From Planctomycetota bacterium (GTDB taxonomy: Bacteria; Planctomycetota; Uabimicrobiia; Uabimicrobiales; JABWCH01): a stretch of 55,156 nucleotides of DNA. The translations under genes and the position numbers were made by a program. The stretch's first letter is position 1; each line of letters starts with the position of its first letter. The DNA lies in the NCBI GenBank assembly GCA_020057085.1, contig JAGVGO010000204.1:1-55156 (forward strand), in the 5' to 3' direction. Positions 13,938 to 49,521 of this stretch are shown here, in pieces. The notes beneath the pieces are model-generated. The model saw only the letters and a list, made by a program, of their open reading frames with translations. It made no database searches and was not told the DNA's origin.

Positions 13938-13941
13938 TGGC

Positions 13942-19668: not shown

Positions 19669-19679
19669 AAGATGGGCAG

Positions 19680-29846: not shown

Positions 29847-30119
29847 CTATTCGCGCGGCGGCTGCTGGGGACGGTCGTCGGGCACCGGATCATAGCCGCT
29901 CTGACACCACGGATTACAACGTAGAACGCGGTAGATACCGAGGAGTGCGCCGCGCACCAGGCCTTTCTTCTGCAAAGCCTCGATAAAATATTGCGAACAG
30001 GTAGGCCTGAAACGGCAGCACGGCGGCAGGCAAGGAGCAATAAAAACCTGGTAAAGCCGGATCAGGGCGATGAACAACTGTCGTATGCAGGATGCTAACC
30101 CAATCATTACACTTTTCAT
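29847..30119 (-). CDS. yidD: Membrane protein insertion efficiency factor YidD
   Basis: [44 protein letters not shown]...GYDPVP. The ATG at 30119 overlaps the rnpA stop (ATGA). Confidence 0.85.
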
Positions 30120-30484
30120 GCCTGTTGCGGCGACAACCACTGCACGGCCCGTTGCATGATTGCCTCCACTTCCTTTTGCACTATTTGCCATTCCAGTGTA
30201 GGCTGGGCGTTGTTCGGCATGATGACGAGATCGGCAGCGACAGCGTCTCGCAGCGTGCTTTGCCGAAAGGCTTCACGTACCAGCCGTTTGAACCGATTGC
30301 GCTTGTGTGCATCACCGAATTTACGGCCAATGCTGATACCCAGACGGAAACAGGGCGTATCGCTGCGCACGCAGCAACCCATCATGTGCGGCTGCGGAAA
30401 ACGTTTGCCTTTTTGTATGGCATAAGTGAACTGATTGGCTTTACGGATGCGGTGTTTGTGGGAAAATCGCTGCGACGACTTCAT
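30116..30484 (-). CDS. rnpA: Ribonuclease P protein component
   Basis: [20 protein letters not shown]...[28 protein letters not shown]. The ATG at 30484 overlaps the upstream ORF's stop (ATGA) and gives 122 aa. Confidence 0.85.
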
Positions 30485-30921
30485 GGGCGTTTCTTCAGGT
30501 CTGGCGGCATAATCTGCCGTGCAAAACTTTTGCATTCACGTGAGCAACCTCTGCCCTGCTGTTCCTGGCATACTACCCATACTTCGGCAGGAAAAGCACC
30601 TGCCGGGTGCTGCCATAAATAGCCGCCAACTTCTGCCATCAATTTTTCGCGCGCAGTGACCGTGAGAGGCCTGTATGGATGTATAGTGGCTCGATATTTT
30701 ATGCCTTGAACCGTAGTAATCTGGGCGATGCGAATTTTTTCCAGGTCAAACAAAATTTGCATGTGGCCGGCCAGGCCGTGAGACTGTTTGACGGTCGGCA
30801 ACTGTTGCAGCATGAACATGGAAACGACAACGAGCAACAATATGCCGACGACCCCTATAGTGACAATGATTTTCAGATTTTTGTTCATAATTCTTTTGCA
30901 GGCTATTGGCCCAAATGGCAT
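30481..30921 (-). CDS. Small membrane-anchored hypothetical protein
   Basis: TM helix IIVTIGVVGILLLVVVSMFML. The start is uncertain (ATG 30921 overlapping the upstream stop, or ATG 30888). Confidence 0.5.
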   Translation of the reverse strand: MPFGPIACKRIMNKNLKIIVTIGVVGILLLVVVSMFMLQQLPTVKQSHGLAGHMQILFDLEKIRIAQITTVQGIKYRATIHPYRPLTVTAREKLMAEVGGYLWQHPAGAFPAEVWVVCQEQQGRGCSRECKSFARQIMPPDLKKRP

Positions 30922-32531: not shown

Positions 32532-32590
32532 AGTTTGTCCCTTTTTTACAGCGACTAATTTGACAATGGTGGTGCGTGCATAAAAATCCC

Positions 32591-32606
32591 CGCCACGGAT
32601 GTGGCG
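32591..32606 (-). terminator. Candidate intrinsic terminator downstream of mazF
   Basis: On the minus strand: CGCCAC-ATCC-GTGGCG followed by GGGATTTTTAT. Two more hairpins lie at 32617-32636 and 32647-32664. Confidence 0.45.
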
Positions 32607-32697
32607 TAGTCCATTTCCTGGCACTAAAGTGCCAGGCTCTATAACTTTGCCGCATTCGCGGCAAGAGAAAATTTGACTTTTTACACACGCATCATAT

Positions 32698-33048
32698 TTA
32701 TATTTTTTTCAGCCCTACCGCTATTTTCAATGCTTCTTCTATCTTAGCGAGCGAATTTTCGGACAATGTTCCATATTTTCCTAAAATTCGTTTCTTATCT
32801 ACAGAGCGCAAGTGCAAAAGCAAAGCTTTAGATTTTTCCACCAAACCACCTTCAGGCGGCTCCAGTAACACCTCGAATGGATATATTTTATCCACTTTTT
32901 TGGAAGTGATTGCAGCAATAATAATGACAGGACTATGTTGGTTGATTATATCAGGCGAGAGTACAATAGCCGGCCTTTCTCCTGCTTGCTCTGAACCTTC
33001 TGCAGGGTCTAATTGTACCCGAATTATCTCACCTCTTTGAATTTTCAC
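32698..33048 (-). CDS. mazF: Type II toxin MazF/PemK-family endoribonuclease
   Basis: RGEIIRVQLDPAEGSEQAGERPAIVLSPDIINQHSPVIIIAAITSK...IYPFEV. A GTG start at 33048 gives 116 aa and overlaps the antitoxin's 3' end. Confidence 0.85.
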   Translation of the reverse strand: MKIQRGEIIRVQLDPAEGSEQAGERPAIVLSPDIINQHSPVIIIAAITSKKVDKIYPFEVLLEPPEGGLVEKSKALLLHLRSVDKKRILGKYGTLSENSLAKIEEALKIAVGLKKI

Positions 33049-33304
33049 TTGCTTGCCTTTCCACCTCTTCTTCCAAAGGATGATATTCACGCTCTATGTC
33101 CAGGTAAATTTCTTGCATTTCCTGGCATCCTTCTATAATCTGCTTACGTAGCTTCTCCTGTTCTTGATTTTCCATCCACTCTAGCAAAAGTTTTGTCATT
33201 ACCTGACTTCTTTTATTTTTGGGAATTACACTTTCAAATCTTTGCAATAATGATTCAGGTAAAGAATATGTCTTTTTCACCAATTTACCAATAACTTGTT
33301 TCAT
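33029..33304 (-). CDS. Ribbon-helix-helix antitoxin (MazE/CopG-like)
   Basis: 91 aa, immediately upstream of and overlapping mazF. RHH-like KKTYSLPESLLQRFESVIPKNKRSQVMTKLL. Acidic C-terminus. Confidence 0.7.
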   Translation of the reverse strand: MKQVIGKLVKKTYSLPESLLQRFESVIPKNKRSQVMTKLLLEWMENQEQEKLRKQIIEGCQEMQEIYLDIEREYHPLEEEVERQASENSKR

Positions 33305-33341
33305 AAAAACTCCTTATTTTTCAGTCTCGTAGGGACGCAAG

Positions 33342-33386
33342 TTAATAGCCAGGGGCGTAAGCGGCGTAAGCCCTGGGCTATAACAA
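33342..33386. repeat. Imperfect palindromic intergenic element (REP-like) sharing a 17-mer with 49569-49585
   Basis: TTAATAGCCAGGGG-CGTAAGCGGCGTAAG-CCCTGGGCTATAA. The exact 17-mer GCCCTGGGCTATAACAA occurs at 33370-33386 and at 49569-49585. Confidence 0.6.
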
Positions 33387-33401
33387 TTCGCGCTTGAAGA
33401 G

Positions 33402-35159
33402 CTACGAATCTTTGGCGATTAGTTTGCTCAGGATGACATTGCGAACAAGAGAAGAGGCACTCAGAATAGCATACGGATTCAATTTATCCAAACTGTCGTC
33501 CTTAGAATGATAGTGGGCGTATTCGTATTGGATAAGTAAGGTAGACGGTACGTCGAGCAAATTGTAGATGGAGTGATCGTCGCCAATTTGCAGGGGAGCG
33601 CCTAGCTCGGCTCCCATTTCTTTTGCTATAGCAAGCACCTGCTCTGTCAATTTCTCGTCGGTAGTATTATACACCCGTGTATATAGAAAGGATATACCTA
33701 TCATGTCAAGGCAAAGCACAAATTTTAAATTTTTCACTTCATTTCGGTGATTGAATCCATAATGTTTGCTCCCCAAAAAATATTCTTCCCTTGTCCCTGG
33801 CTCTCCTGCTGTTTCGCCGTCATAGAAATGAAACGACAGGCCGATGCGATTACTGACACACCAATCCATAAATAATTCATCACGAATAAGATGCAGTAAT
33901 GCTAAGACACCGGAAAGGCCGTTGTTCGCACCGGGGTCGGCGATATTGCCGGAGAAACTGTCGTAATGGGTACAAAGTAAGATAAGAGTATCGAACTTAT
34001 ATTGAGGTTCTATGTAAAAATTTTCTAATATCACGTTGCCATGAAAAGAGTGAGAGCAACTAAAGCTATCCTTTTTTAGCTTAAAGGAATTGGGGAGGCC
34101 TTTTTCCAATATTGTTTGCAATACTTCGCGTGCTTTTAGGTTACCTATATTCCTTGGGCCTACAGAAGCCATCGCCCTTATCATGTCTTGCATGTTTGCT
34201 GAGTAGTCCACAATCTCTTTGTCCGAACCTATTGTTGAGGAGTTGAATTTTTTAGCCGTAAGCGTTTTAATATCAATCGGAAGATTAGCAAAAATAGAAG
34301 AATAATGAGATGGAGCCGTTTGCAGCGTTGTCTCGTAACCTTGCAGCAAAAGAGCCTTGTTGCATTCATTGAAAGGAAGGCTGGTTAAGCCGAAGCCAAT
34401 CTCTACTATTTGCGAGAGTGAATACTCCCTTTCGTCAAAAGGGCCTATGCCGTCGAGCTGAGAAAAACTTCTAAAGCTAAATGGAGGCTCCTGGAGATAC
34501 CCGCAGTAAGTCGGCCAGAATCTGTCGTTGACAGGCACTATCTCTTTTAACCTGGTCAAGTAATTTAAGTCTCCCTGTCTCAATGCTAAAATAGCCTGTG
34601 CTGCTACATAGGTAGGGAAAAAAACACTGGTTTTATGGATAGAAATATTCTTTAACAGGGAAATAGCTTCCTTTATGCTCTTGGCTTCACACAAGGTGGT
34701 AAGCTTTTTATAAGATTCCTGATTTTCTGGTGTATTGGCAACAGGCTCGTGGGTTCCGATATCTATTTTATTCCTGTATGTTGCGAAAATTTTGTCTTGT
34801 GAAATATAACCGGGTATGGAGTAAGCGATCTTGACTAAAGATGTCCGATCTCCCACAACGTTTTGTGAAGCTGTCGGTAAAAAGGGAGGCATTTGGAATT
34901 TAAGTCTAAAACCGAGCGGCTCAACGACGACCTCTTTGAGCAGGCGCCAGCCTGTCAAAGGGATTTTGTCACAGCGATTTATGTGCATGTATTCTACGGT
35001 GAGCAAAATTTTGCTGTTTTTCGGGATAGCAATATTACCTGTCACCACAACATAGCCGCTCTCGTTCCTTTTCTCGCCGTTAACGACATGAAAAAAAACG
35101 AATACGGCCAGACAAGAGGCTAAAATTACGCTGGTGAGTATTAAAATTTTCTTTATCAT
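33402..35159 (-). CDS. Secreted M28-family peptidase-like protein with substituted metal ligands
   Basis: 585 aa with an N-terminal signal-anchor. C-terminal M28 motifs THYDS, PGANNGLSG, YDGETAG, LCLDMIG, DDHS and YHSKDD. Confidence 0.7.
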   Translation of the reverse strand: MIKKILILTSVILASCLAVFVFFHVVNGEKRNESGYVVVTGNIAIPKNSKILLTVEYMHINRCDKIPLTGWRLLKEVVVEPLGFRLKFQMPPFLPTASQNVVGDRTSLVKIAYSIPGYISQDKIFATYRNKIDIGTHEPVANTPENQESYKKLTTLCEAKSIKEAISLLKNISIHKTSVFFPTYVAAQAILALRQGDLNYLTRLKEIVPVNDRFWPTYCGYLQEPPFSFRSFSQLDGIGPFDEREYSLSQIVEIGFGLTSLPFNECNKALLLQGYETTLQTAPSHYSSIFANLPIDIKTLTAKKFNSSTIGSDKEIVDYSANMQDMIRAMASVGPRNIGNLKAREVLQTILEKGLPNSFKLKKDSFSCSHSFHGNVILENFYIEPQYKFDTLILLCTHYDSFSGNIADPGANNGLSGVLALLHLIRDELFMDWCVSNRIGLSFHFYDGETAGEPGTREEYFLGSKHYGFNHRNEVKNLKFVLCLDMIGISFLYTRVYNTTDEKLTEQVLAIAKEMGAELGAPLQIGDDHSIYNLLDVPSTLLIQYEYAHYHSKDDSLDKLNPYAILSASSLVRNVILSKLIAKDS

Positions 35160-35181
35160 AACTTTTCAGAAGCCAGCTTCT

Positions 35182-36207
35182 TTACTTCTTCTCGCTTACC
35201 ACTTCTGCCGAATAAGTAAGAGCGTAAATCCCAAATTGAGGAACCCAATGCCCATATGAGTTGTAATCATTCTGATAACTCTCATGTTCTTGCATACCCA
35301 TCATCACATTGGTCAGGTATGCCTTGCGGTAGGTCAGATCGTTCGTTCTTCGGTAGAGCGACCATAAGCCCCAGGCACGCGAAAAATTCATGCCTAAGTG
35401 GTGGAAATTTTTAAATGATTCGATGGGTAATAACGATGTCGTATCTGGCTGGTATTTACTGAGTATCTGCTTGAACAGATCGGCGTCGGCCGTGACCTCG
35501 CAAAGATGCATATAGTTGCCAAAGCGGGAGAAAAATTCCGGGTATTTTTTGCTATCGTGGGCAAAGGACATTTTACGCTCGGTAACGTGAAAGATTGTTT
35601 TTGCTTGGGAAGCGACAAACTCCGCTATTTCCGTGTTTTTGCTAAACTCGGCATAATCGTGTAAATGCCGAAAAGCCCACTCTGCATTGGCATATTCTCC
35701 TATGTAAACGAAAGGAGGAGATAATTTGTAATAGCCCATTAACGATGTGGCAATTTCGTCTGCCATCGGCCTCAGGCTGGTAATCTCGGTTACCGCTTCA
35801 TACTCCATCTCCAGCCTAAGAAACCAGGCACGGCCATAAGGCATCTCAAAATTTGCGCGTTTACTCAAAAATGTTTTTTCCTGAGCCACGCCTGAGGCAG
35901 CGAAAGAATTTTTCACAAATTCAATGTACTGCTTCTTTTTGCCAGGAGTTACATATTTGGATGCTCTCAGCAAAGCCCAATATCCATGAACGGATGAATG
36001 CCAGTCAAGACAGCCGTGAAATATAGGATAACCGGTATCTGTCCTGTTCACTGCCGCAACGACTGATTTACTCAACTTCTCTATATAAAGAGTTCGTTTC
36101 GCCAAAAACTCCGACCAATCATTGTCCTCAGCCACATTGTGTTGCGCCGTAAGCATACCACACAAACACAGTAATGCCGATAAAAGTAGCAGCCATCGCT
36201 TTCTCAT
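35182..36207 (-). CDS. Secreted DUF2891-like protein
   Basis: ATG 36207 with AGGAG upstream. Signal peptide MRKRWLLLLSALLCLCGMLTAQ. The motif HGCLDWHSSVHGYWALLR is one I recall as typical of DUF2891. Confidence 0.6.
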   Translation of the reverse strand: MRKRWLLLLSALLCLCGMLTAQHNVAEDNDWSEFLAKRTLYIEKLSKSVVAAVNRTDTGYPIFHGCLDWHSSVHGYWALLRASKYVTPGKKKQYIEFVKNSFAASGVAQEKTFLSKRANFEMPYGRAWFLRLEMEYEAVTEITSLRPMADEIATSLMGYYKLSPPFVYIGEYANAEWAFRHLHDYAEFSKNTEIAEFVASQAKTIFHVTERKMSFAHDSKKYPEFFSRFGNYMHLCEVTADADLFKQILSKYQPDTTSLLPIESFKNFHHLGMNFSRAWGLWSLYRRTNDLTYRKAYLTNVMMGMQEHESYQNDYNSYGHWVPQFGIYALTYSAEVVSEKK

Positions 36208-36226: not shown

Positions 36227-37999
36227 TCAGCCTTGCTTGTTCTGCCCATATTTGGTCGTGTATTCATAAGATGCCGTACCGGTCTTGGGAAAACGCTGGT
36301 CAAATTTGATGACAACGAGCGTCAGGTCGTCACGCCATGGCCGTCCCTGACAAAATTTTTGCAATTCATCGTGGCAGTCGCACACAATCTGGTTGGCTGA
36401 CTTGCCGGCGCTCGCTTTCACTACGGCATGCAACCGTTCTGAACCGAATTCTTGACCTGCAGGGTCCATCGCTTCGGTGATGCCATCGGTGGATAGCACA
36501 AGAATCTCACCAGGGCGGATCTGTACTTCACGGCTCTCGTCATAGTCGTACTCTTTGATCATGCCGAGAGGAATACCTGTACTTTCAAGGGCTTCAAATT
36601 CTTGTGACGATCTATGATACAATATCGGGTTATCGTGGCCGGCGTTGGCATAACGCACGGTCATAGTCTTGGTATCCAGTTCGCCGTAAAACATCGTGAT
36701 GAAGCGATCTTCACCCATGTCGTCGGCAAGCAGGCGATTAAGTTCGTTCATCATCACCGGAATAGTTGCCGATTTGCCGGCAAGTGCCTTGACAAAAGCG
36801 CGCGAAGTGGCCATGAGAAGTGCAGCGCCGACGCCGTGGCCGGTGACATCGCCGATGGCAATGGCCCAGCGTCCCTGTCCGAGATCGAGGAAATCGTAGT
36901 AATCGCCGCCGGTTTCGTCGCAGGTAACATTCCAGCCGACCAGATCGTACTCGAAATTTTCCGGCGCGCCCGAAGGCAGCAAGCTGGTCTGTATTTTGCG
37001 AGCAATGTCGAGAGCCTGCTGCATGCGTTCCTTTTCCATGTAATCTTTGAACAGAATGGCACGATGCGCCGCCACACCCGCCTGCTTACCGATTGCCGTA
37101 AGCAAATCGAGATGTGCCTTGTTGAAGCGGTTGCTGAGCGCGACCGAGTCAATGTAGATAGCGCCGAGTACTTCTTTCGACGACTCGAGCGGCACGCTGA
37201 TCACCGACTGGATATTTTGTGCCACGATGCTCATATTGCCGCTGAAACGGTCATCGAGCATGGCATTGGCCGAGAGAACAGATACCCCTTCGTGAATCGT
37301 TTTTTTGAGGATGGTACGCGACAGTTTGGTTTCTCCTCCTTGCAGATCACGTTGCACCAGGACGCGGAAATCTTCTCCTTCCGGCACGACGATAAACGCG
37401 CGGTCAGGCTTGAACACTTCCATAATCTTGTCCATAATCGCCGCAAACAATTTGGCCTGGTCTTGCTCGGCATTGGTGAGATTGCTCACTTCATAGATGG
37501 TGGAGAGATACACCGCTGCCATGTCGCCTTCGCCTTCCTTTTCGTGTCCATCTTGTTTGTGATAGATACGCGAAGAGACGGCAAGCGACTGGTTGACATC
37601 TACCCGTTCCATAATGGTGTTGGGCGATTTTTCGACAAAGTCATCCTTGACAAATGAAGCAGAAGCAGCCGGGGCTTCCGGTTGCAGTTCTTTGAATTTC
37701 AGCTCGGTCTGGCCGATCTTGAGAATATCGCCATCAACGAGTTTGCGGGAAATGATAATTTTGTTGTTGACAAAGGTACCATTGGTACTCCCTAGATCTA
37801 CGAGCAGAAAATGGTCTCCCTTCCATTCTACGAGAGAATGGTTACGCGAAATGCCTTTATCCAGTATCTGGACCTGGCAACTGTTGTCGCGACCGATGAC
37901 TTTCTTGTCGCCTTCTGCCAAGGCAAAAGATGCGCCCATCTGTTTGCCGTTTCTAATCAATAATGTCGCGGTTGCTTTGGGATTTGTATCAGCAGTCAT
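36227..37999 (-). CDS. FHA + GAF + PP2C/SpoIIE-type Ser/Thr phosphatase
   Basis: FHA domain (VIGRDNSCQVQILDKGISRNHSLVEW...LVDLGSTNGTFVN). A central GAF-like region. PPM motifs GGDYYDF, GDVTGHGVGAALLM, YANAGH and LSTDGITEA. Confidence 0.85.
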   Translation of the reverse strand: MTADTNPKATATLLIRNGKQMGASFALAEGDKKVIGRDNSCQVQILDKGISRNHSLVEWKGDHFLLVDLGSTNGTFVNNKIIISRKLVDGDILKIGQTELKFKELQPEAPAASASFVKDDFVEKSPNTIMERVDVNQSLAVSSRIYHKQDGHEKEGEGDMAAVYLSTIYEVSNLTNAEQDQAKLFAAIMDKIMEVFKPDRAFIVVPEGEDFRVLVQRDLQGGETKLSRTILKKTIHEGVSVLSANAMLDDRFSGNMSIVAQNIQSVISVPLESSKEVLGAIYIDSVALSNRFNKAHLDLLTAIGKQAGVAAHRAILFKDYMEKERMQQALDIARKIQTSLLPSGAPENFEYDLVGWNVTCDETGGDYYDFLDLGQGRWAIAIGDVTGHGVGAALLMATSRAFVKALAGKSATIPVMMNELNRLLADDMGEDRFITMFYGELDTKTMTVRYANAGHDNPILYHRSSQEFEALESTGIPLGMIKEYDYDESREVQIRPGEILVLSTDGITEAMDPAGQEFGSERLHAVVKASAGKSANQIVCDCHDELQKFCQGRPWRDDLTLVVIKFDQRFPKTGTASYEYTTKYGQNKQG

Positions 38000-38145
38000 A
38001 AAACCTATGCCATGAAAAAAAACTATGGCGCTGTGCGCCAAAGTAGTTTGCAATAAAAACGAACGCCTTATTTATTATTGGGAAGAGAAAGAAAATAGTA
38101 TCCGTTTTGCAATAGTTTATTGCCGTTGCAATCAGACCACTGTTC

Positions 38146-39677: not shown

Positions 39678-40730
39678 ATGAAACCGATCTACTGTGTGAA
39701 ATGCAACAGTGTGTGCCAGCCTCCCCGCGGACGAACCAACACCGTGGTATGTACTCAGTGTGGCTTCATTTTTGAAGTGATGCGTGGAAGTTTGCACGAA
39801 GAAGAAGCGACGAACAGCGCCGCCGGCAGCCATTTCGATACTCCATTGCCGGCTGGGACGCATGCCGTACAGGCACCAACTGAGCGCAGCAATGTGGACA
39901 TTGCCGGTACAAAGAGTACGCCGCCGGTGAGCCGAGAGAAGCCAGAGAAAGCTTCCGCCAAAACCATGAACGCCATCAAAAGAAAAGAGAATGCGGACGC
40001 AGCAAATGAAAACAGCGACGATGACGAGAGCGAACCGTCCGGCAAAAACACTGCGTCAGTCAGAAAGGACGACGCAGAAGATACGGACAAAAAAGGCCGC
40101 TTTGCTTTGCAAAGGCCGGAAGATATGGTCTACGAAACGTATGCCGCGCCGCTCAAAGACATTGAGGCCGTTTTACAGAAAACCATCGACAGGTCCAAAC
40201 AGTCGTTGCCGGCAATAATTGAAACGCCCAAGCAGTCGTTGCCGCAGATGGTGGGCCGTCTGAAAGAACCCGAAGCCAAGCCGGCACCCAAGGCAGATTT
40301 GGCCAAGCTCAAGACTTCTACTCTCCCTACACCCGTGAAAACTCCTGCGCCCGCTTTGGCTAAACCGCCTTTGCCGAAGCCGCGGACGCAAGAAAATCGC
40401 CCGACACATAGCCGTCGTCGTAACCTGGCCAATACAGTCAAAGATAGCTTTACCAAAATAAGACGCCCGGCCAAGAAGCCGCCATTGCCATCTATGCCGG
40501 CTAAAGTAGTCGCTAAAACCAAACCGCGCAGGATGCTGCGCTTATTGCTCGCCACTGTCTTTCTGGTTATTCTGTACATCTTGAGCATGGCCCCTGTGGT
40601 GTGCTATTTTCCTAAACAACCTGCCTGGCTGACACAATTCTATTACCCGGTGGCAGTTTTAAAGCAATACATCCCGTGGCTGGAAGAATACCAGCAACAG
40701 TGGGCGTCTTTTATAAGAAACCACATTTGA
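39678..40730 (+). CDS. Zinc-ribbon protein with Lys/Pro-rich disordered region and C-terminal TM helix
   Basis: CVKCNSVC-x17-CTQCG at the N-terminus. TM helix LLLATVFLVILYILSMAPVV. AAGGAG lies upstream. Confidence 0.55.
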   Translation: MKPIYCVKCNSVCQPPRGRTNTVVCTQCGFIFEVMRGSLHEEEATNSAAGSHFDTPLPAGTHAVQAPTERSNVDIAGTKSTPPVSREKPEKASAKTMNAIKRKENADAANENSDDDESEPSGKNTASVRKDDAEDTDKKGRFALQRPEDMVYETYAAPLKDIEAVLQKTIDRSKQSLPAIIETPKQSLPQMVGRLKEPEAKPAPKADLAKLKTSTLPTPVKTPAPALAKPPLPKPRTQENRPTHSRRRNLANTVKDSFTKIRRPAKKPPLPSMPAKVVAKTKPRRMLRLLLATVFLVILYILSMAPVVCYFPKQPAWLTQFYYPVAVLKQYIPWLEEYQQQWASFIRNHI

Positions 40731-40884: not shown

Positions 40885-43083
40885 TTACTTGGCGATATAT
40901 TTCTTTACTTCCTTTGCAAATTCCTCCTCTGGAATAAACTCTACATGGCCATCCAGGAAAAGCACATTGCGACCCGTCGCGTGGATTCCCTCCTTGGTCC
41001 AGGCAAGATATTGGAGAGTGGTATCCTTAAACGGGCTCGTTATGGGTGCTGTGCGTACTTCATAATCTGTCACTTCTGGACGTTTTTGCTTGAAATCCGC
41101 AGCCGTCCCAGGTTTATGACCAGAGATAGGAGAAATAAAAACCTCCGGCTCTATGAGAATCTTTGTCTCGTAAAGGGTGGTGAAAAAGTCCGGATTTTTG
41201 AGAGGCGGGTACTTTTTCCCTTTGCCAAAGTCCTCCCGATAAAGCATGACAGCCTTCCCGATCCGGCTCAGGTTGACTTTACATTTCATCTGCATTGCCT
41301 TGTCTTGCACGGCGCTAAGCGCAGGCAGCAGGAGAGCTGCCATAATGCCGCTGCCCGCTACAAATCCGGCCGTAGGAGCCATATTCCCTATCGTGAATTG
41401 GGAGGTTATCTTTATGCCGTCAGAGTGGGATCCCCACTGGAATGTGGAAGGTCCAAATAACGGGCGGAGCCCGGATGCTTTGGGAAACCTGGAAACATCG
41501 AAGGGGAGGCCGAACTCGCGGACGGCTCCTTCGAGAAATGAGAAGACAGGGAGCATCGTGTTATAAACATACAAATTCCCGGTGACGCCGTTGTCCCAGA
41601 CAGTGATGCCGGTTTCTCCAGAGATATTGAACGGCAAAGGCACTTTGGCCTCGGCATGAGCTTCTTTATAATCCACATAATCTTTTAGATTTTGCACCAG
41701 ACCTGAGAGAATCAACGTATCTCCCTCAATCAGGAAACAGGAATTCATGCCGAGGTAATAATTCAGACAATATTGTATCAAGGCGGCCGGACTCGGCTCG
41801 TATTGGCGGCTCTGGATGCGCTCCATCAAATTTCCAGGCGGCAATACGAAATAGCAGATAGCTTTGCCCTTATAATCCGTGTTTTTTTTCAATATCAAGC
41901 CGGACTCTTCCAGGCGAGATACAATATTCTGGAACTTGGCTACATCACGGAGCCGGATCAGCCCAAAAGATGTGCCTGCCAGTTCTTGGGGTGCCGGCGT
42001 AAAAAACAAAAAGTCACCGGCAAAGGGGTCGAGGATGTCCGCGGCAATATCCAACCTGGACTGCTCCTGCCAGCTCTTCATGCTTTCTTCAAATTGCCTG
42101 TATTTGGCTGACTCCAGAGCAGAAAAAGAGTCCTTGAAAAAACAGAAAACTTTTTGCGGGTCCAAGGGAATATAAGTGAACTGGCTGAACGCACAAGGGA
42201 CATGAGGCAAAAGTTTTTCAGGACTGCCGCCAGAAAAACTCAGAAGTTGGGTAAGCCCCTTTTTTTCTCCCGGTGCAAGCAAGGCAAAATTGTTCTGCAA
42301 TAATTTGCCACCGGAGAGCGACCACATCAAGCCTTTCCAATTTTTGACACCCAGGACATCCATCGCTTTTATGTCATTGGGAGTGGATGTTTTCTGCACT
42401 GCCAGCTCGATGTTCCAATAAGCGGATAGCAAGATGTTTTTGGCAACGCCGTTCATCTCTCGCAACTTTTTAAAATTGGCATTTTCCACTAAAGACTTTT
42501 GCATGGAAAGGATATCGGAAACCGATGCTTTGCGCGTGGCCAGCAAATAGCACCCTTTCCATGTCCATGCGAAAAGCGTACTTTTTCCCTTTACCTGAAA
42601 CTCTTCCATGTCAATCGGCTTTTGCCCTTTGATGGGGACGGAAGAACGTTTGCTCGTCATGCCCAAAAATTTCGTGAGCCCTGTGCGGATTTTTTCCTGG
42701 ACCTCTTTTCCCTGTCCGAATACGATCATGACATCCGGTTCACCTCTATTCGGTTCTCTGACTCCTACGATACAATCGCTTTGCAAAATTTTGAGATATT
42801 CTTCCGGCTTATAATCACTCTTTTGTATTTCCGCAAGCGGCAGGCGAGCCCAGACAGCTTCGCCCATATCTCCCAACATTTTTTTGGCATCCTGAAATTC
42901 CTGGCTTTTAAAAACTTCCTGCCATTCTGGCTGCTGCTGTTTTTCCCACGAGGAAGCACCGCAGAAATAGAAAGACAGCAAAGTATTTTCAGGAAGTAGC
43001 GACTCCAGAGGCTGGCCGCTTACAAATGGCGATATCACGCCTGCAAATAGCAAGAAACAGAACACAAAACAACATTTTCTCAT
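40885..43083 (-). CDS. Secreted large (DUF3352-like?) domain protein with a C-terminal DUF1559/H-X9-DG pseudopilin-like module
   Basis: ATG 43083 with AGGAG upstream. Signal peptide MRKCCFVFCFLLFAGVISPFVSGQ. C-terminal GFVAGSGIMAALLLPALSAVQDKAMQMKCKVNLSRIGKAVMLY ... HATGRNVLFLDGHVEF (H, 9 residues, DG). Confidence 0.75.
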   Translation of the reverse strand: MRKCCFVFCFLLFAGVISPFVSGQPLESLLPENTLLSFYFCGASSWEKQQQPEWQEVFKSQEFQDAKKMLGDMGEAVWARLPLAEIQKSDYKPEEYLKILQSDCIVGVREPNRGEPDVMIVFGQGKEVQEKIRTGLTKFLGMTSKRSSVPIKGQKPIDMEEFQVKGKSTLFAWTWKGCYLLATRKASVSDILSMQKSLVENANFKKLREMNGVAKNILLSAYWNIELAVQKTSTPNDIKAMDVLGVKNWKGLMWSLSGGKLLQNNFALLAPGEKKGLTQLLSFSGGSPEKLLPHVPCAFSQFTYIPLDPQKVFCFFKDSFSALESAKYRQFEESMKSWQEQSRLDIAADILDPFAGDFLFFTPAPQELAGTSFGLIRLRDVAKFQNIVSRLEESGLILKKNTDYKGKAICYFVLPPGNLMERIQSRQYEPSPAALIQYCLNYYLGMNSCFLIEGDTLILSGLVQNLKDYVDYKEAHAEAKVPLPFNISGETGITVWDNGVTGNLYVYNTMLPVFSFLEGAVREFGLPFDVSRFPKASGLRPLFGPSTFQWGSHSDGIKITSQFTIGNMAPTAGFVAGSGIMAALLLPALSAVQDKAMQMKCKVNLSRIGKAVMLYREDFGKGKKYPPLKNPDFFTTLYETKILIEPEVFISPISGHKPGTAADFKQKRPEVTDYEVRTAPITSPFKDTTLQYLAWTKEGIHATGRNVLFLDGHVEFIPEEEFAKEVKKYIAK

Positions 43084-43093
43084 AACATTTCTC

Positions 43094-45784
43094 CTAATCG
43101 CTTGCGGGAACCCAATGTCCCCCATCTACCGTACGCCACCCACCGAGCCTGGGTGAATTTTGTTGCACAGATTCAAGATCGAAAGCCGCCTCGACTTCCG
43201 GCATATTGGTAAACCCGGAATACTGTCGGTTAACATTGGGGCAGGCATAGACTTCTCCGCTTTGATCCACTACAAATGCACGTATGCCCGAAGTTCTGTA
43301 CGTCATAGGCCACGCGTAAATAAGGTAACGGTTTTCCATGTGATCGGTAGAGGCGGGATCGGTTTCGGGAGAAGAAGTTTCCCCGATATATCCTGTAGCT
43401 GTAGGAAGGTAGCAACGGAAACAATAGCCGCTTTTAACGGCAATGCCGTTATTCTGCCGGGCGGTCATCCCTAATACCGTGCTGATAAAAGAAGGATATG
43501 CAACCTTTCCCGAACCACGCAAAGGAACTGTTCCCGCAAGCTCCTGGATAAAACAAAATTCCCCAGTGCCGTCTTGATCCTGGTCTACCATCGCTTGGGA
43601 CTGGAATTGCACCTGAGCGGTGCTTAAAGTCCGCAAAGTCCCGATGGCGCTTCCCTCGTTTGCGGAGATCCTGGCCCGCAAAAGCCCCGGAATCGCAATC
43701 GCTGCCACAATGGGAACGACGACAACAGCATTGCTTCCCAACCCTCCTCCGGCATCCAGGAGAGAGAAATCAGGCACTCCGCTCGCATAAAGGGAAAAAG
43801 AAAGAGTGTCCGGTTTGCTTTGGACGCATGCAAGTTCCGGCAGCATGTACTTTTCCAGTACCTTGGCCTGCGGCAGGTTGGCCACTTCCAAAGGAATGCC
43901 GATATCCCTCACCAGCCCCTCCGCTCCCTGGAGCATTGACAGGAAGTTTCGATATCCGGGGGCAAAACTGGTGCCGGGCTTTCTAAATATCAAAGTAGTG
44001 TGCGGCCCTGCTTGGGCAATATCGTTTTGTACGGTACTGACCAGTGTTTCGCCTTTGGCATTTAAAAAATCTATGTAAGATTTCAGGCCGTGGATCAGGC
44101 CGCTAAAGGCCACTACCTTATCATTGACAAAAAAGTAGGCGCGATAGGGATTGAGTAAAACCAGGAGCTGGGGATCGAACTGTTGCGCGAGCTTCAGCAG
44201 TCGCTCTCCGGAACCCAAATTGTTCTGCCAATAGTGAATCTCATAATATCCATAGGTTATCACTTGTTCCGCAAAGCCCCACGCTTTAAAACAAGCGGCA
44301 ATCCGTGTTTGCAAATCTTCTTTGTTTTTGACGGCGAGCAGATGGATGCCTTCCTGGAAAAAGCCGCCTTCGACAGGCTGCCTCGCAAAATAGGCACACT
44401 CTTTGTCGAGACAGCGGAGAATATCGGCTATCGAGGAAATTTTGAGCTGCTCGTCCGCATAAGAATATACCTGGGGAGCGATTTGCCGGACGATCGTCAG
44501 AAGTTCCACCCAGGCCTCTTTGAAATCGCGGCAGCTTTCTATGTAGATGGTGGAGTCTTTAGGAACTAACGAGAGATGCGCAGAACGGCAATCCTCTCCC
44601 CAGAAAAATTTTGTAAAACCGCGTTTGTCATCCGGGCAGTAAATCGCCAGTTTGCTGAAGAGTTGCGGACCCTCATATCCCCAGGCGACGCCCACGCTTT
44701 TCCAACCGGCAAAACCCATCATAGTTGCCAGTCTCATGGGATCCGGCGGGATATTTTTGTACAACATATCTAAATTCACATAAAGATGCGTCGCCACCTG
44801 CCCGGCTGCGGAGGTATTTTTCACTATTTCTTGGAAATCGCGAAACGAAGCCAGGGACTGTCCAGGCGATTCCTTTTGCGTCATCTGTGTCAGGCTTTCC
44901 TTGCTCGTTCCTAGCAAGAGACGCCTGCCAACCATTCCCACAAAGACAAAGCCCATCGGGCCTTGCACTGCCATGAAAGGATACCCTGCAATAGTTTCCG
45001 GAGTAGCGTTCGGGGAGTTTTTGCTAATCCAGGATACTAACAATTGCCAAAACTCATCTTTCCCTTTTTCCTGTATATCCAGAGACAGGAGAAGTGAAGG
45101 TGGCTTCGTCCTGGGTAACTCAATAAGCGCCAGCGACACCTCGCCGGAAAAAGCTGCCAATATTTCTTTTCTGCTCTTCCCGAAGCCTTCTTTCAGTGGA
45201 GCATCCACATCTTTCAGCATAGGCTCTAGCAAATCTTCCAGAGGGGCAATAAAAGCCTGAAAATCCGGTTCCTGTAACAGTTTGCCCAGGTTCGTCATGG
45301 CAAACCCCACCCCCGCGCAGTCTATCTTAGGAAAATTGATGAGCAGCAAGGTATTGGCCGGCAGTAAATTGGCAATCCCTCCTCCCGGCCCCGACGTGGA
45401 TTCTTGTGTAAGCAAAGCCAACCGTTTCAATTTGGCTATTTGGCTTTCCATGTTTTTTCGAGTATCTTGTTGGAATAATTTCTGGACTTCTTGAGCATAC
45501 TGTGCCAGAGACTCTTCTCCGCTCATTTTGTCCAATAATGCTCGATATTCTTCACCCGACTCCTGTTGCAGAGAAGATAAATTCAAGAGAACTTTCTGAT
45601 AATGTAGCAAAGCTCGTGTGTACTGTTTTTCCGCCTCGCCTTTCAGGGCTTCCTGCAGGTTCTGCAAAGACTCCTCATATAATTTCTTCACTGTTTCGTT
45701 GTTTTGCTTGGGGCTGCAACCCGAACCCAGAAAGGTTAGCAAAAACACTACGACCACTGCGAGCTTGAAATAGCAAAGCTTCAT
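43094..45784 (-). CDS. Secreted/lipoprotein large (DUF3352-like?) domain protein with a C-terminal PulG/type IV pilin-like module
   Basis: 896 aa. Signal ...FLGSGC. The N-domain is paralogous to the downstream gene (LLPANTLL..., SGLIHGLKSYIDF...). C-terminal NAVVVVPIVAAIAIPGLLRARISANEGSAIGTLRTLSTAQVQFQS...DQDQDGTGEF. Confidence 0.75.
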   Translation of the reverse strand: MKLCYFKLAVVVVFLLTFLGSGCSPKQNNETVKKLYEESLQNLQEALKGEAEKQYTRALLHYQKVLLNLSSLQQESGEEYRALLDKMSGEESLAQYAQEVQKLFQQDTRKNMESQIAKLKRLALLTQESTSGPGGGIANLLPANTLLLINFPKIDCAGVGFAMTNLGKLLQEPDFQAFIAPLEDLLEPMLKDVDAPLKEGFGKSRKEILAAFSGEVSLALIELPRTKPPSLLLSLDIQEKGKDEFWQLLVSWISKNSPNATPETIAGYPFMAVQGPMGFVFVGMVGRRLLLGTSKESLTQMTQKESPGQSLASFRDFQEIVKNTSAAGQVATHLYVNLDMLYKNIPPDPMRLATMMGFAGWKSVGVAWGYEGPQLFSKLAIYCPDDKRGFTKFFWGEDCRSAHLSLVPKDSTIYIESCRDFKEAWVELLTIVRQIAPQVYSYADEQLKISSIADILRCLDKECAYFARQPVEGGFFQEGIHLLAVKNKEDLQTRIAACFKAWGFAEQVITYGYYEIHYWQNNLGSGERLLKLAQQFDPQLLVLLNPYRAYFFVNDKVVAFSGLIHGLKSYIDFLNAKGETLVSTVQNDIAQAGPHTTLIFRKPGTSFAPGYRNFLSMLQGAEGLVRDIGIPLEVANLPQAKVLEKYMLPELACVQSKPDTLSFSLYASGVPDFSLLDAGGGLGSNAVVVVPIVAAIAIPGLLRARISANEGSAIGTLRTLSTAQVQFQSQAMVDQDQDGTGEFCFIQELAGTVPLRGSGKVAYPSFISTVLGMTARQNNGIAVKSGYCFRCYLPTATGYIGETSSPETDPASTDHMENRYLIYAWPMTYRTSGIRAFVVDQSGEVYACPNVNRQYSGFTNMPEVEAAFDLESVQQNSPRLGGWRTVDGGHWVPASD

Positions 45785-45939: not shown

Positions 45940-48900
45940 TTATCTATCGCCGAGCGCCGGCAGTTGTACCACGGCGATTACCAGCTTGCGTCCCTCACCT
46001 GGTTTGAGATAGGTCCACGCCAGAAAATTGCGGTCGGGTGACAGTGTCACATGGTCGCTTTCGTGAAAGAGCGGCTGCTGCGCAGCGTCGGTCAGTTGCC
46101 AGTCGTGACTGAGGCTGTCGAGCGAAGTGAGTGTCAGCACCGGATGTTTAGCTTCTTTGTTGGTGAGCAGGTAGAGCACGTACGCCGGCGAACCGAACAG
46201 TTCTGCTCCTTTAGCACGGATTTCGATACCGGCCGGCATGAGTACGCTGCCGCCGTTCGACACGATCTTCTCGCGCCCTGTTTCGGCATAGATGCGTGTG
46301 ATGGCCACCTTGCCGCCTTCATGTTCCAGGTATGTTACCAGCCACTGCCCGTCTTTGCTCCATGCAGGGGCAAAATGGTTACCGGGCATTTCGTTTATTT
46401 TTCTAAGAGTGTCTATTTTCCAGGCATTCTGCTCCCATGAAGCGGTGGTATAGTAGACATCACTGTTGTGGTCCCCTGCTTTGTCGGCAGCGCACAATGC
46501 GACCTTGAGAAGTTGGCCGTCACTGCACACTGCAAAATCACGTAATTCAGCCAATTGCAGCGATGTCGTCCGCAGCAGGCAATATTCTTTGCCGTCGTGC
46601 AGGTAAAACAAGTCGTTATCGCGCAGAAAGAACAAAGAAAGTTTGTCGGCCAAAAGACACCAGTGCGGCTGGCGATCGTATTCGGGACTGTCCGTGACTG
46701 GCTTGGGTTCGGGGAACTGGTTGCGGGTGTAAGAGAGGTGATAGATGTCGTAAAATCCCATCTTCCTGCCGCTGAAAGCCAATAAAGATGTATGGGGCTG
46801 AGGGGCCCAGGCGGGGAAAGCGAGCCAGCGATGTTTGGGATCATAAAGCTCCACGGTGTGTTCGTGCCCGCTCACCAAATCGAGCAGTTGCAACGCCCGT
46901 TGTTCGCGTTGCAAAGTCTGGAAACAAAGCACGCTGCCGTCATTGGACCATTGCGGCAATGATGGCTCACCTTCGCATGCCACTTCGTGCATATCGAGCA
47001 GAAAACCCGACGGCATCTCGCACTGCGGTGGCAGCGGACGCCACCAGAAGGGCCAGCATCTTTCGAGCTGTTCCTTCATCTGCACCAGTGCCTCACTGTC
47101 TTCCAGGCTTACCGTTTGCTTGTTTGCCCAGATATTTTCCCAAAGGCGTTCCGTATTCGATTTTTTGAACAGATGCAAGGTCCACGGAGTTTGCTTGAGA
47201 GTTTCTTGCAATTTGCGCGTCTTGTTCCACATTGCTTGCAGATTGCTCTCCGCTTCTTCCTGTAACAACGGGAACCCCAGGTTCAGTTTTACCAACTCCT
47301 GTTCATAAAATGTTATATCCGATGGTGTGGCGCGGTGATAATCCTGCTGTAACACTTTGTCCAAATTCGCTTTCCAGGCCAGCCATCCAGCCTGGTTTTT
47401 CAGCAGGAAGAGCTTGTTGTGCAGTCTGTTGTGGTTCACAACAAGCTGTGCCAAGAGACTCTCTACCGCGAGCATCTTGTTCGCCTTGTTTTTCTGCACT
47501 TCACTCAACGATTGCCCAAGCTGTTTGTAAACATTGTCGAGCAGTGGACCATGTTCCGCCAGGACGTCGTCTGCGTGGAGCGGACGTGCATACAGCCATT
47601 TCTGTGAAATTTCCGACCACTTGGCGGCCTGGCTAATCCATTGTTCTTTGACACACTGTTCGTATAGATTGTTGGTTTTGCTCAACAATTCAATGCAGTA
47701 GAGACGTAAATCTAGGGACGCCTTTTCCAGCAACTGGCGCAGTTCTTTGCTACGGTTGAAATAATCTTGTATCTGTTCCGGCGAAAGAGTCTCCACCTGC
47801 TCTGTACTCAGGCTGTCCCACATTTTTTTGATTTCCAGCCAATTAGCCTCTTTGTTACCGATCGGACGGATTGCCTCGAACAGTTTTTGCAACTCCTGAA
47901 ATTGCACATGTGCTTCTTTGAGCATGTATTCTTTTTGCTGGCGAACGGTGTTTTGTATCACCTGCATTTTTTGCAAAATGTTCTCCAGACCGGCAATCTC
48001 ACTGGCAGCAAGTTCTTTTTTCCACTCCCACAAAGATTGCCACTCTTTGGCAAGTTCCGGCCATTGCCGGGAAGTGGAATTCCAAGTTTCCTGAGCCATG
48101 TTCTGGTAAATATTGTGCGCCTTCTGTAGTAGCTCAGTCATCTCTTTTTGTGTTTCTGCCTGCAAATCTTGCAATGTTGCCTGAATTTCACTCAGGCGTT
48201 CGTAGTGTTTGGCACTGGCGGCCGGCGTTGCGTTTTCCAGACGGAAATGACGCAGTTCCTGCCATTGACTTTGTGCTTGAAACCATCTGGCCTGCCGTTT
48301 GACAAGAGAATTTGGTTCGAGCAAGACAGTCCATTTTTCGATGTTTTGTTTGCAACTAGCGACTTTGTTTTGCATTTCTTTGCAAGAATTCTGTGCATTT
48401 TTTTGCATATCCACAAAGCCGCCCAGCAAAGATTCGAGCTCTACCGCTTTGGCCAACGGAATATCGAGGAGAGAAAGCCACTGCGCATCCCATTGCGCTA
48501 TGGTTGTGGCATAGGACGGTACAGCCTGTGCCCAGGGGTCGTGGCGGATGTTGTTGGCAATACCCTGCGCACTATGATACATCCTCGTCACCAGTTGCTG
48601 CATTTCTGCCTGGTATGCCAGGAGTGCGGTGCGCAGTGTAACCAGCTCGCTTTCCAGCTTGCGTGTTTCCTGAGGAGAGAGGAGCGTGAGGTCAGCATCG
48701 CGGATTTCCCGCCATTTCTGTTCATAGGCGATCCATTTTTCCTGGCGCGTGACAATGGCCGCCTTGACGAGGGTGGTGTACAGGTTTTGCACTTCGCCGT
48801 ACACGGCAGCAAAACTTTTGTGCGCTTTTTCTTTTTGTTCCCTGGCCTTGGCTGCGAGATCGAGCAGTGCGAGGTATATTTCTTCAAAATGAGCGGCGCC

Positions 48901-49521
48901 GGCCAGGCCTTTCGCTTCCCGTTTTTCCCAACTTTTTTCCCACGAGCTTTGTACCGCTTGCCAGCGCGAAAACTGCTGTGCCCAGTTATCCTTAGACACG
49001 GTCAGGTAGAGTTGATAGGTATCTTGTAACATCTTGCTGTACTGTTTCTCGCTTGCCAGTTCCAGCGCATGCAGTTCGTCAGCGACATTTTTGATTTGCT
49101 GTTGATAGAGAGCCGCCTCCGATTCGGGTATGCTATCGACGGCGCGGCTTTGCAAATTCAACCAGGTGCTTTCCAGCCGCCCCCATTCATCGCTGCGCCG
49201 GATTATCGGTATTTCACGCAGTTTGTTGTAGAAGATGCGTATGTCCTCTTTGAGTTTTTGCGTCAACTCGCTGCCGCGGCTTTCTACCACCTGTTGCGAC
49301 TGTACCACCAGCAATTTGATCTCGCGTGCCAGTTGAATGTTCTGTTTGAGCCGTTCCAGCTCATTTTGAATCTCGTCTATTTCTTTTTTTTCCAGACGCC
49401 GGACAATGATCTGCAATTCCTGAATCAACATATCCAACTTGCTCGCTGCCTGGTTTTCCTGTGGCAGGGCAGGAACAAGAAAACACAATAACAAAATGCA
49501 CAGCGTTATTTGCCGAGACAT
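45940..49521 (-). CDS. Secreted protein: five ~150-aa Trp-anchored alpha-helical super-repeats + C-terminal beta-propeller (TolB/PD40-like) region
   Basis: 1193 aa. Signal peptide MSRQITLCILLLCFLVPALPQ. The C-terminal ~357 aa carries PD40-like strings (QWSNDGSVLCF, PAWSKDGQWLVTY, LSPDRNFLAWTY). Confidence 0.75.
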   Translation of the reverse strand: MSRQITLCILLLCFLVPALPQENQAASKLDMLIQELQIIVRRLEKKEIDEIQNELERLKQNIQLAREIKLLVVQSQQVVESRGSELTQKLKEDIRIFYNKLREIPIIRRSDEWGRLESTWLNLQSRAVDSIPESEAALYQQQIKNVADELHALELASEKQYSKMLQDTYQLYLTVSKDNWAQQFSRWQAVQSSWEKSWEKREAKGLAGAAHFEEIYLALLDLAAKAREQKEKAHKSFAAVYGEVQNLYTTLVKAAIVTRQEKWIAYEQKWREIRDADLTLLSPQETRKLESELVTLRTALLAYQAEMQQLVTRMYHSAQGIANNIRHDPWAQAVPSYATTIAQWDAQWLSLLDIPLAKAVELESLLGGFVDMQKNAQNSCKEMQNKVASCKQNIEKWTVLLEPNSLVKRQARWFQAQSQWQELRHFRLENATPAASAKHYERLSEIQATLQDLQAETQKEMTELLQKAHNIYQNMAQETWNSTSRQWPELAKEWQSLWEWKKELAASEIAGLENILQKMQVIQNTVRQQKEYMLKEAHVQFQELQKLFEAIRPIGNKEANWLEIKKMWDSLSTEQVETLSPEQIQDYFNRSKELRQLLEKASLDLRLYCIELLSKTNNLYEQCVKEQWISQAAKWSEISQKWLYARPLHADDVLAEHGPLLDNVYKQLGQSLSEVQKNKANKMLAVESLLAQLVVNHNRLHNKLFLLKNQAGWLAWKANLDKVLQQDYHRATPSDITFYEQELVKLNLGFPLLQEEAESNLQAMWNKTRKLQETLKQTPWTLHLFKKSNTERLWENIWANKQTVSLEDSEALVQMKEQLERCWPFWWRPLPPQCEMPSGFLLDMHEVACEGEPSLPQWSNDGSVLCFQTLQREQRALQLLDLVSGHEHTVELYDPKHRWLAFPAWAPQPHTSLLAFSGRKMGFYDIYHLSYTRNQFPEPKPVTDSPEYDRQPHWCLLADKLSLFFLRDNDLFYLHDGKEYCLLRTTSLQLAELRDFAVCSDGQLLKVALCAADKAGDHNSDVYYTTASWEQNAWKIDTLRKINEMPGNHFAPAWSKDGQWLVTYLEHEGGKVAITRIYAETGREKIVSNGGSVLMPAGIEIRAKGAELFGSPAYVLYLLTNKEAKHPVLTLTSLDSLSHDWQLTDAAQQPLFHESDHVTLSPDRNFLAWTYLKPGEGRKLVIAVVQLPALGDR
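47032..49185 (-). repeat. Protein-level tandem super-repeats (5 x ~150 aa) in the 1193-aa ORF
   Basis: W-x6-W anchors at aa 113/120, 263/270, 413/420 and 561/568, with W-x6-L at 713/720. Secondary W clusters at aa 180, 330, 480, 628 and 780. Spacing alternates 67 and ~83 residues. Confidence 0.75.

Follow-up and report, generated by a model that had tools for sequence, protein, structure and literature searches.

Can the head of a type IV pilin be separated from the leader and the helix N-terminus that normally precede it, and be re-used at the other end of a large exported protein? The question is raised by two adjacent genes, here called p1 and p2, of a Planctomycetota bacterium, found in contig JAGVGO010000204.1 (assembly GCA_020057085.1), the 55,156 nucleotides of which are referred to throughout as the window. 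The products of both genes have the same architecture: a Sec- or lipoprotein-type signal, a domain of approximately 540 aa that belongs to the DUF3352 superfamily, a short flexible linker and, at the C-terminus, a module copied from prepilins. An N-terminal class III signal is what defines a pilin; the tails of p1 and p2, as judged by sequence comparison, are pilin-derived modules from which this signal peptide has been lost. Every modular pilin described so far has its domains in the opposite order, and the order seen here recurs across Planctomycetota.

Two adjacent genes with the same architecture

Both open reading frames (ORFs) are intact and lie on the minus strand where the earlier note on this DNA had placed them; in the ORF list, p1 occupies 43094-45784 (896 aa) and p2 occupies 40885-43125 (746 aa). 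The start of p2 is most likely, from the sequence context, the methionine M15 at nt 43083, which gives a protein of 732 aa and is preceded, 9 nt upstream, by an AGGAG that overlaps the p1 stop codon. With this start, only 10 nt separate the two genes, so that translational coupling is plausible, and the adjacent genes are probably co-transcribed; a scan for promoters and terminators showed nothing above chance. No homopolymer of 7 or more bases occurs at the p1 and p2 junctions, and the window is free of any N.

Signals and topology were judged from hydrophobicity, sequence and a calculation of the apparent free energy of membrane insertion (dGapp). Each protein contains exactly two hydrophobic segments, namely, the N-terminal signal, which in p1 (MKLCYFKLAVVVVFLLTFLGSGC) appears lipoprotein-like, and the pilin-like helix. 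That a signal of the Sec or lipoprotein type and a large paralogous domain precede the pilin-like segment, as had been proposed, is borne out by hydrophobicity for the signals and by BLASTP for the domains. The features of the two genes are as follows.

43094..45784, minus strand: p1 gene, 896 aa, with signal, coiled-coil insert, DUF3352-like domain, helix and DUF2950-type pilin head; orthologs at 39-40% identity in genomic loci L001 and L002; AlphaFold2 (AF2) model with a mean predicted local distance difference test score (pLDDT) of 84.6
45716..45784, minus strand: p1 N-terminal signal, aa 1-23, ending in LGSGC; lipoprotein-like by hydrophobicity and sequence; IVGC or LFGC in the orthologs
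45395..45706, minus strand: helical or coiled-coil insert specific to p1, aa ~27-130; alignment of the orthologs begins at p1 residue 132; helical with low pLDDT in AF2
43781..45382, minus strand: p1 N-domain, aa ~135-668; a divergent member of the DUF3352 superfamily, TP0453-like in fold, as indicated by paralogy with p2, profile matches and Foldseek
43679..43729, minus strand: p1 residual stub of the N-terminal half of pilin helix alpha1 (alpha1-N), aa 686-702, AVVVVPIVAAIAIPGLL; aligns to pilin residues ~7-22; dGapp +0.31
43097..43678, minus strand: p1 C-terminal half of the helix (alpha1-C) and DUF2950-type globular head, aa 703-896; PF11453 at 32.9 bits; helix and beta-sheet in AF2; head shared with canonical prepilins
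43556-43588, minus strand: p1 DxDxDG loop VDQDQDGTGEF, within the DUF2950-type head
40885..43083, minus strand: p2 gene, 732 aa from M15, by the ORF list and the ribosome-binding site (the listed ORF starts at 43125); orthologs at 34-37% identity directly 3' of the p1 orthologs
43015..43083, minus strand: p2 Sec-type signal, MRKCCFVFCFLLFAGVISPFVSG, by sequence and hydrophobicity; orthologs with AxA-type sites
41404..43014, minus strand: p2 N-domain, paralog of the p1 N-domain, by BLASTP and the family profile
41308..41367, minus strand: p2 residual alpha1-N stub, GFVAGSGIMAALLLPALSAV; aligned by the tail profile to GspG and PilA from residue 7 onward; dGapp +0.74; conservation 0.49 versus 0.32 for the N-domain
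40888..41307, minus strand: p2 alpha1-C and DUF1559/H-X9-DG-type head, by TIGR04294, the matches of family tails to DUF1559 and the AF2 tail model
40948-40983, minus strand: p2 H-X9-DG motif, exact, HATGRNVLFLDG

The insert of about 100 aa between the signal and the N-domain of p1 gave weak, sub-threshold matches to BamD/YfiO and DUF6694.

Pilin ancestry of the C-terminal modules

The tail of p1 matches the Pfam family DUF2950 (PF11453) above the cutoff of 20.2 bits, with 28.1 bits when the whole protein is searched and 32.9 bits for the tail alone, the match spanning only positions 105-248 of the 274 in the profile. The earlier note had regarded this tail as pilin-like, which fits the helix, aligned in a single-sequence search of the PDB to Myxococcus xanthus PilA, geopilin and Thermus thermophilus PilA from pilin residue 10; the head itself is to be reassigned to the DUF2950 type. 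In that search, type IV pilins were the best matches of the p1 tail at a non-significant E=0.05, and the p2 tail retrieved an unrelated cyclophilin (CYP7), also without significance. The H-X9-DG motif read from p2 is exact and is recognized by TIGR04294 just over the cutoff (19.2 bits versus 19, E=7.5e-4). The match of p2 to DUF1559/SBP_bac_10 (PF07596), at 16.2 bits, is below the cutoff of 23.3 and covers the last 20 profile positions only, and that to TIGR01710, the equivalog of the major type II secretion system (T2SS) pseudopilin GspG, at 14.2 bits, is far below the cutoff of 88.85.

Profiles built from orthologous tails matched known pilins with significance, the p1-type profile M. xanthus PilA (E=4e-8) and the p2-type profile GspG (E=9e-7) and PilA (2e-6). 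The C-terminal segments of these proteins, accordingly, yield significant pilin and H-X9-DG profile matches and, as anticipated, represent two different pseudopilin subtypes, p1 being DUF2950-type and p2 DUF1559/H-X9-DG-type. All alignments of the tail profiles to PilA and GspG start at mature residue ~7, so the pilin leader, the phenylalanine at position 1 (F1) and the glutamate at position 5 (E5) are missing from both tails. In agreement with this, and with the absence of the leader and of E5 noticed at the outset, N_methyl (IPR012902) has no match in p1, p2 or the scanned tails of their relatives, and there is no G[FM]TLIE-like class III motif beside the helix in p1, p2 or 149 relatives (151 sequences in all). 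The first ~6-9 residues of alpha1 are lost and replaced, that is, nearer a third of the hydrophobic helix than the half that had been estimated, and the tails keep a hydrophobic stub of 13-17 residues in which the pilin Pro22 is conserved.

In the AF2 model of p1, a 41-residue helix (689-729) is followed by a beta-sheet, both with pLDDT >90, and in the model of the p2 tail (pLDDT 90.4) a 39-residue helix precedes four strands and a helix at the C-terminus. The order of secondary structure elements in both models fits a long alpha1 with an antiparallel beta-sheet head, and the family tails have kept DxDxDG loops and the loop motif of the GspG type. Foldseek searches with the whole p1 model returned matches to the N-domain only and none to the tail; the models are consistent with a pilin fold rather than proof of it.

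The likely source of the modules lies in the same phylum. The DUF2950-type head is also found in canonical prepilins of ~230-290 aa that start ...RGFTLIELMIVVAIIAIIAAIAIPGLLRAK (N_methyl 38.8 bits in locus L037), and canonical DUF1559 prepilins align to p2 from ...ILAxLLLPAL onward. By these alignments, the p1 and p2 modules are derived from canonical planctomycetal prepilins.

The N-domain

The N-domains of p1 and p2 (~540 aa) are paralogs, with 23% identity over 382 aa in BLASTP (E=6e-15), and the shared strings that had been quoted for them are present in the alignment. The suspected relationship to DUF3352 holds at the superfamily level, through relatives that exceed the Pfam cutoff, and not as a direct match: neither p1 nor p2 matches DUF3352 (PF11832) at E<=1, and it is relatives collected with the p1/p2 N-domain profile that exceed the cutoff of 26.8 bits (P0021, 50.9; P0049, 42.2; P0012, 39.1; P0034, 38.4; P0141, 32.9). 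One DUF3352-scoring relative also matches DUF4836. Foldseek aligned the p1 model to TP0453 of Treponema pallidum with E=2.7e-5, a probability of 1.0 and a target-normalised TM-score of ~0.43, the alignment comprising ~270 columns, against ~540 residues in the N-domain and 896 in the model; weaker matches include RseB and P47. TP0453 is reportedly an outer-membrane-associated lipoprotein with amphipathic helices that interact with membranes. No catalytic motif is evident in the consensus of the N-domain family. Going by the scores of the relatives and the match of the model to TP0453, the N-domain appears to be a divergent DUF3352-superfamily domain, exported and possibly serving as a lipid- or membrane-interacting module.

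A family of fusions in Planctomycetota

A word-indexed homology search retrieved nothing for p1, no protein other than the query for p2 and, when run with a 50-sequence profile, three proteins, so an exhaustive hidden Markov model (HMM) profile search with the N-domain was required (E<=1e-3; in what follows, P-numbers denote relatives and L-numbers genomic loci). This search yielded 166 cluster representatives, most of which have the N-domain after a signal, then a hydrophobic segment (at ~570-620) and, last, a tail that is 100-260 aa long, so that the survey for the same domain order suggested by the earlier note shows it to recur across Planctomycetota.

When 63 family tails were scanned with Pfam and NCBIfam, matches were obtained to DUF2950 (22 of 63, best E 2.3e-14), DUF1559 (14 of 63 at E<=0.01, best E 3.8e-19), T2SSG (PF08334; 12 of 63, best E 4e-18), TIGR01710 (GspG; 20 of 63, best E 1.2e-16) and H-X9-DG (TIGR04294; 9 of 63, best E 8.5e-12). 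HMM typing of 151 sequences assigned 41 to the DUF2950 type (p1-type), 36 to the DUF1559 type (p2-type) and 13 to the GspG type; the 61 untyped ones, without a tail match, have short tails or other tails or are fragments. Individual proteins, P0141 for instance, exceed the Pfam cutoffs for both DUF3352 and T2SSG. The nearest neighbours of N-domains have the same tail type in 66 of 77 cases and, because N-domains mostly cluster by tail type, the comparison suggests a few old fusions along with occasional tail swaps.

The p1-p2 tandem pair is kept in two Planctomycetota metagenome-assembled genomes (MAGs; L001 and L002) at 34-40% identity, and in the complete genome of Candidatus Uabimicrobium amorphum (L041, NZ_AP019860.1) a p1-type gene is followed by a P0011-like family paralog, the tail of which is p1-like and not H-X9-DG. 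The pilin heads are about as conserved among orthologs as the N-domain in p1 (0.39 versus 0.37) and more so in p2 (0.48 versus 0.32), and the alpha1 stub is the most conserved segment of both proteins (0.69 in p1, 0.49 in p2). Contrary to what separate ancestral genes joined by error would give, the N-domain and the pilin-like part are fused in the other genomes as well; the sole split case, P0154/P0155, has a frameshift inside the N-domain and not at the tail junction. It is against this background that an assembly or frameshift fusion, or a tail that is a decayed, non-functional remnant, has to be viewed: the proteins are absent or nearly unique in the word-indexed database and homologs come only from MAGs and metagenomes, but the same fusion at 34-40% identity in independent genomes, a complete one included, tails as conserved as the N-domain and modelled with high pLDDT, and a split confined to the N-domain together rule artefact and decay out for practical purposes.

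P0025 and P0045 (loci L031 and L032) carry a GspG-like domain (T2SSG, E=8e-14) inside the N-terminal part of the DUF3352-like domain and also end in a small pilin-like tail. An operon in L035 (10001-14767) consists of two tandem DUF3352+T2SSG fusions followed, with a 4-nt overlap, by a gene for a 130-aa GspG-like protein in which a generic N-terminal membrane anchor replaces the class III signal. Beyond the tandem paralog, no conserved partner was found in the inspected neighbourhoods of distant members. A candidate tandem paralog upstream of P0042 in L003 was rejected, the neighbouring gene being unrelated.

Other contexts of the pilin head

A genome scan with the p1-type tail found 46 loci, nearly all in Planctomycetota. 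In addition to the canonical prepilins, the head occurs behind a DUF3352-like domain in ~15 loci and, with a degenerate helix, behind other exported domains (L072). Three proteins combine it with yet other partners, namely, a Sec signal and leucine-rich repeats (LRR) in L038, a Sec signal and a DUF2092/LolA-like domain in L055, and a signal, a helical domain and two tandem heads in L060. None of these three contains an internal hydrophobic helix, so the head must be exported along with the upstream domain. Finally, in two proteins of ~760 aa, from Ca. Uabimicrobium sp. HlEnr_7 (L068, NZ_CP165719.1) and Ca. U. amorphum (L071, NZ_AP019860.1), a Ser/Thr kinase at the N-terminus is followed by three hydrophobic segments and, at the C-terminus, by the head; this order places the head outside, where it may give a receptor kinase its extracytoplasmic sensor. 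Ca. U. amorphum is a culturable predator.

Topology and a possible role

According to the standard rules, a protein with a signal, an exported domain and one hydrophobic segment has a cytoplasmic tail, and pilin heads normally reside in the periplasm. The topological puzzle that the earlier note saw here is real insofar as these rules do predict a cytoplasmic head, but it is probably softer than stated, given the weak helix and the export of the same head elsewhere. With a re-implemented Hessa-type predictor, for which known pilins, Lep H1 and GpA served as controls, the dGapp values of the fused helices (+0.31 in p1, +0.74 in p2; family medians +0.8 to +1.2) lie systematically above those of seven canonical prepilins from the fetched loci (-2.0 to -3.9), so that membrane insertion of the fused helices is predicted to be ~3 kcal/mol less favourable than that of the helices of canonical pilins. 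The charge bias of the helix flanks is weak. Cysteine pairs in the DUF1559-type tails gave a mixed picture that did not discriminate between compartments. Every unambiguous context of the p1-type head is extracytoplasmic, and no family tail contains a recognizably cytoplasmic domain; one has a TlpA/ResA-like thioredoxin, and others have tetratricopeptide repeats (TPR) or low-complexity sequence. The predicted weakness of the helix, the contexts of the head, the insertions in P0025 and P0045, the L035 operon, the retained loops and the lack of cytoplasmic-type tail domains jointly tip the balance, by a modest degree, towards full export with a periplasmic head.

The explanation that we prefer, with a probability of about 0.5 for the whole of it, is that p1 and p2 are leaderless pilin modules on exported, lipid-carrier-like proteins, with the head in the periplasm and engaged in docking. 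The N-terminal signal would direct Sec export of the entire chain, and the truncated alpha1 stub would be too weakly hydrophobic to stop translocation, so that the pilin head would come to lie in the periplasm. Stub and head might then serve as a membrane-proximal docking or oligomerisation module, which is the weakest step of the scheme; the partner could be the other paralog (p1 with p2) or membrane-embedded pseudopilins, and docking would tether the lipid-carrier-like N-domain at the inner membrane. Since its N-terminus looks lipidated, p1 may be anchored at both ends. By established pilin biology, modules without the cleavage-site glycine (G-1) and E5 are not expected to undergo cleavage by prepilin peptidase or pilin-like polymerisation and, hence, would be neither PilD substrates nor regular filament subunits.

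Several observations weigh against this explanation. Residues 679-697 of the p1 model have pLDDT <50. For the p2 tail, Foldseek gave no significant match in the PDB, the best being the minor pilin PilX at E=0.92. Genes for T2SS or type IV pili are absent from the window, and none were found beside the homologs whose neighbourhoods were inspected. The docking function is one that we purely infer. The remaining points concern the helix, which is borderline and not clearly non-membrane, and they are shared with the strongest competing explanation.

That competitor, a serious one though the less probable, holds that p1 and p2 are type I bitopic membrane proteins, N-out and C-in, in which the helix is a stop-transfer segment and the head is re-used for an interaction in the cytoplasm. 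Indeed, the helix is the only internal hydrophobic segment, comprises 17-25 uncharged residues and is the most conserved part of the proteins; the residues before it are mildly acidic and those after it neutral to basic, with basic residues following it in p1 (RAR) and several relatives, among which P0107, P0141 and P0065 have strongly basic clusters. Short-tailed relatives end in the helix and an R/K-rich or low-complexity tail, with R/K right after the helix, and resemble type I anchors. The helix is lost in other exported fusions yet is most conserved here, and it could be a true membrane span. Nevertheless, this topology would require that at least three periplasm-type pseudopilin heads and a TlpA-like thioredoxin were recruited to the cytoplasm and kept there by selection, although all unambiguous contexts of the same head are extracytoplasmic and no tail has a classical cytoplasmic domain. 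It also leaves unexplained the weakening of the helix and sits poorly with the conservation of Ca-type loops in the tails and with the segments of several members (for example, P0052, P0065, P0125 and L072), which are insufficient in length or hydrophobicity for a membrane span.

Another scenario, which we consider improbable, keeps the whole protein in the periplasm and has the stub buried in a lipid-binding-like cavity of its own N-domain or that of the paralog, in a self-chaperoned form that contacts neither membrane nor pseudopilins. The resemblance of the N-domain model to TP0453 and, more weakly, to RseB and P47, the LolA-like DUF2092 partner of the same head and the high conservation of the stub are compatible with such burial; the low AF2 confidence of the stub (pLDDT <50, with no confident docking) and the LRR or TPR-like fusion partners that have no such cavity are not.

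Still less probable is the release of a separate pilin from the 3' part of the genes, by an internal start or by proteolysis, to act as a membrane-anchored pseudopilin: p2 has Met residues near the junction (NMAPTAGF...) and p1 has a TTG preceded by GGAGG, but the candidate starts are not conserved (the p2 ortholog in L001, L001_p2, has none), there is no conserved Shine-Dalgarno sequence, a basic leader and the G-1/F+1/E5 motif occur in no family member, and a prepilin peptidase site would face the wrong side.

The leaderless periplasmic module thus being retained as the preferred explanation, one can conceive of a bolder and less probable extension, in which Planctomycetota would have made pilin heads a general leaderless periplasmic adaptor, a 'reverse modular pilin', placed behind DUF3352-like, LolA-like, LRR and Ser/Thr kinase proteins; the stub of the DUF3352 family would allow insertion among the pseudopilins, either in their membrane pool or at the base of their assemblies, and couple a lipid-carrier-like domain to the type IV filament machinery. 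Stranger still, the heads might instead work in the cytoplasm.

Other genes of the window

The gene directly upstream of p1, in the same orientation (45940-49521, minus strand), encodes a 1193-aa protein in which a signal and ~800 aa of coiled-coil-like repeats are followed, at the C-terminus, by a PD40/TolB-like beta-propeller; in other genomes, the pair does not have this gene beside it. Convergent with p2 is a 350-aa ORF (39678-40730, plus strand) with an N-terminal CxxC...CxxC zinc-ribbon-like motif, a Lys/Pro/Ala-rich low-complexity middle part and a C-terminal hydrophobic helix, and with no Pfam match.

Five genes at 157-9486 (minus strand) encode a 1230-aa protein with NHL repeats and an MtrC-like multihaem cytochrome, a 482-aa cytochrome that contains seven paired-CXXCH repeats, a B12-binding radical SAM protein and, in tandem, two AhpC/TSA-TPR paralogs, a cluster that could be an extracellular electron-transfer or redox module. 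Eukaryote-like signalling genes are dense in the window (9516-12290, minus strand; 19680-20624, plus; 23824-25332, plus; 36227-38053, minus) and comprise an FHA-GAF-SpoIIE/PP2C phosphatase and three Ser/Thr kinases, of which one also contains DUF4388 and HEAT repeats. The G+C fraction is 0.42-0.47 at 12000-22000 and 30000-36000, compared with 0.49-0.57 elsewhere in the window, and among the ORFs at 12.7-18.1 kb and 20.6-22.6 kb are several without a Pfam match.

Implications and comparison with known systems

At least 90 typed cluster representatives indicate that pilin heads are detachable from the assembly route of type IV filaments and can be re-used C-terminally. Planctomycetota genomes encode ~100 DUF1559-type 'pseudopilins', far beyond the needs of filaments, and the fusions suggest that many DUF1559-type proteins are periplasmic interaction modules and not filament subunits. 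The family links DUF3352 and DUF2950, both domains of unknown function, to pilin biology, and it is a clean test case for the hydrophobicity that a stop-transfer helix needs.

The earlier note knew of no described system with this architecture, and our searches of the literature on DUF3352, DUF2950, DUF1559 and H-X9-DG found no description of it beyond a passing count in Tuwongella immobilis. The proteome study of that planctomycete counted three Sec/signal peptidase I (Sec/SPI) proteins with SBP_bac_10 and reported their fractionation, with no analysis of their architecture, family or topology (PMC8567305). Compared by description only, these proteins likewise combine an ordinary signal with a DUF1559 domain (PMC8567305), and the same work shows the DUF1559-type prepilin-like family to be massively expanded in Planctomycetota (PMC8567305).

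On the N-terminal side, DUF3352 (PF11832), DUF4836 and TP0453 belong to the superfamily of the N-domain and are all exported proteins or lipoproteins, none of them described with pilin tails. On the C-terminal side, canonical planctomycetal prepilins, in which N_methyl is joined to a DUF1559/SBP_bac_10 or a DUF2950-type head (L037 and L039 are the counterparts of p1, and L028-L030 those of p2), share with p1 and p2 the alpha1 residues ~7-53 and the heads. These prepilins have ~230-390 aa, a leader-G|FTLIEL and a predicted dGapp of -2 to -4, in contrast to p1 and p2, which have none of these and carry ~570-690 extra residues upstream.

The closest formal analogs are the modular pilins, of which more than 1,200 proteins in 264 architectures have been catalogued, with IPR012902 at the N-terminus and the extra modules at the C-terminus (PMC8179133). 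As in Streptococcus sanguinis PilB and PilC, CofB and GspK, a pilin module is connected in p1 and p2 to a bulky non-pilin module through a short linker (PMC8179133). In those proteins, however, the class III signal comes first, the extra module is C-terminal and polymerisation proceeds through alpha1-N (PMC8179133), whereas p1 and p2 have the pilin module last, lack the class III signal, F1 and E5, and depend for export on an ordinary N-terminal signal.

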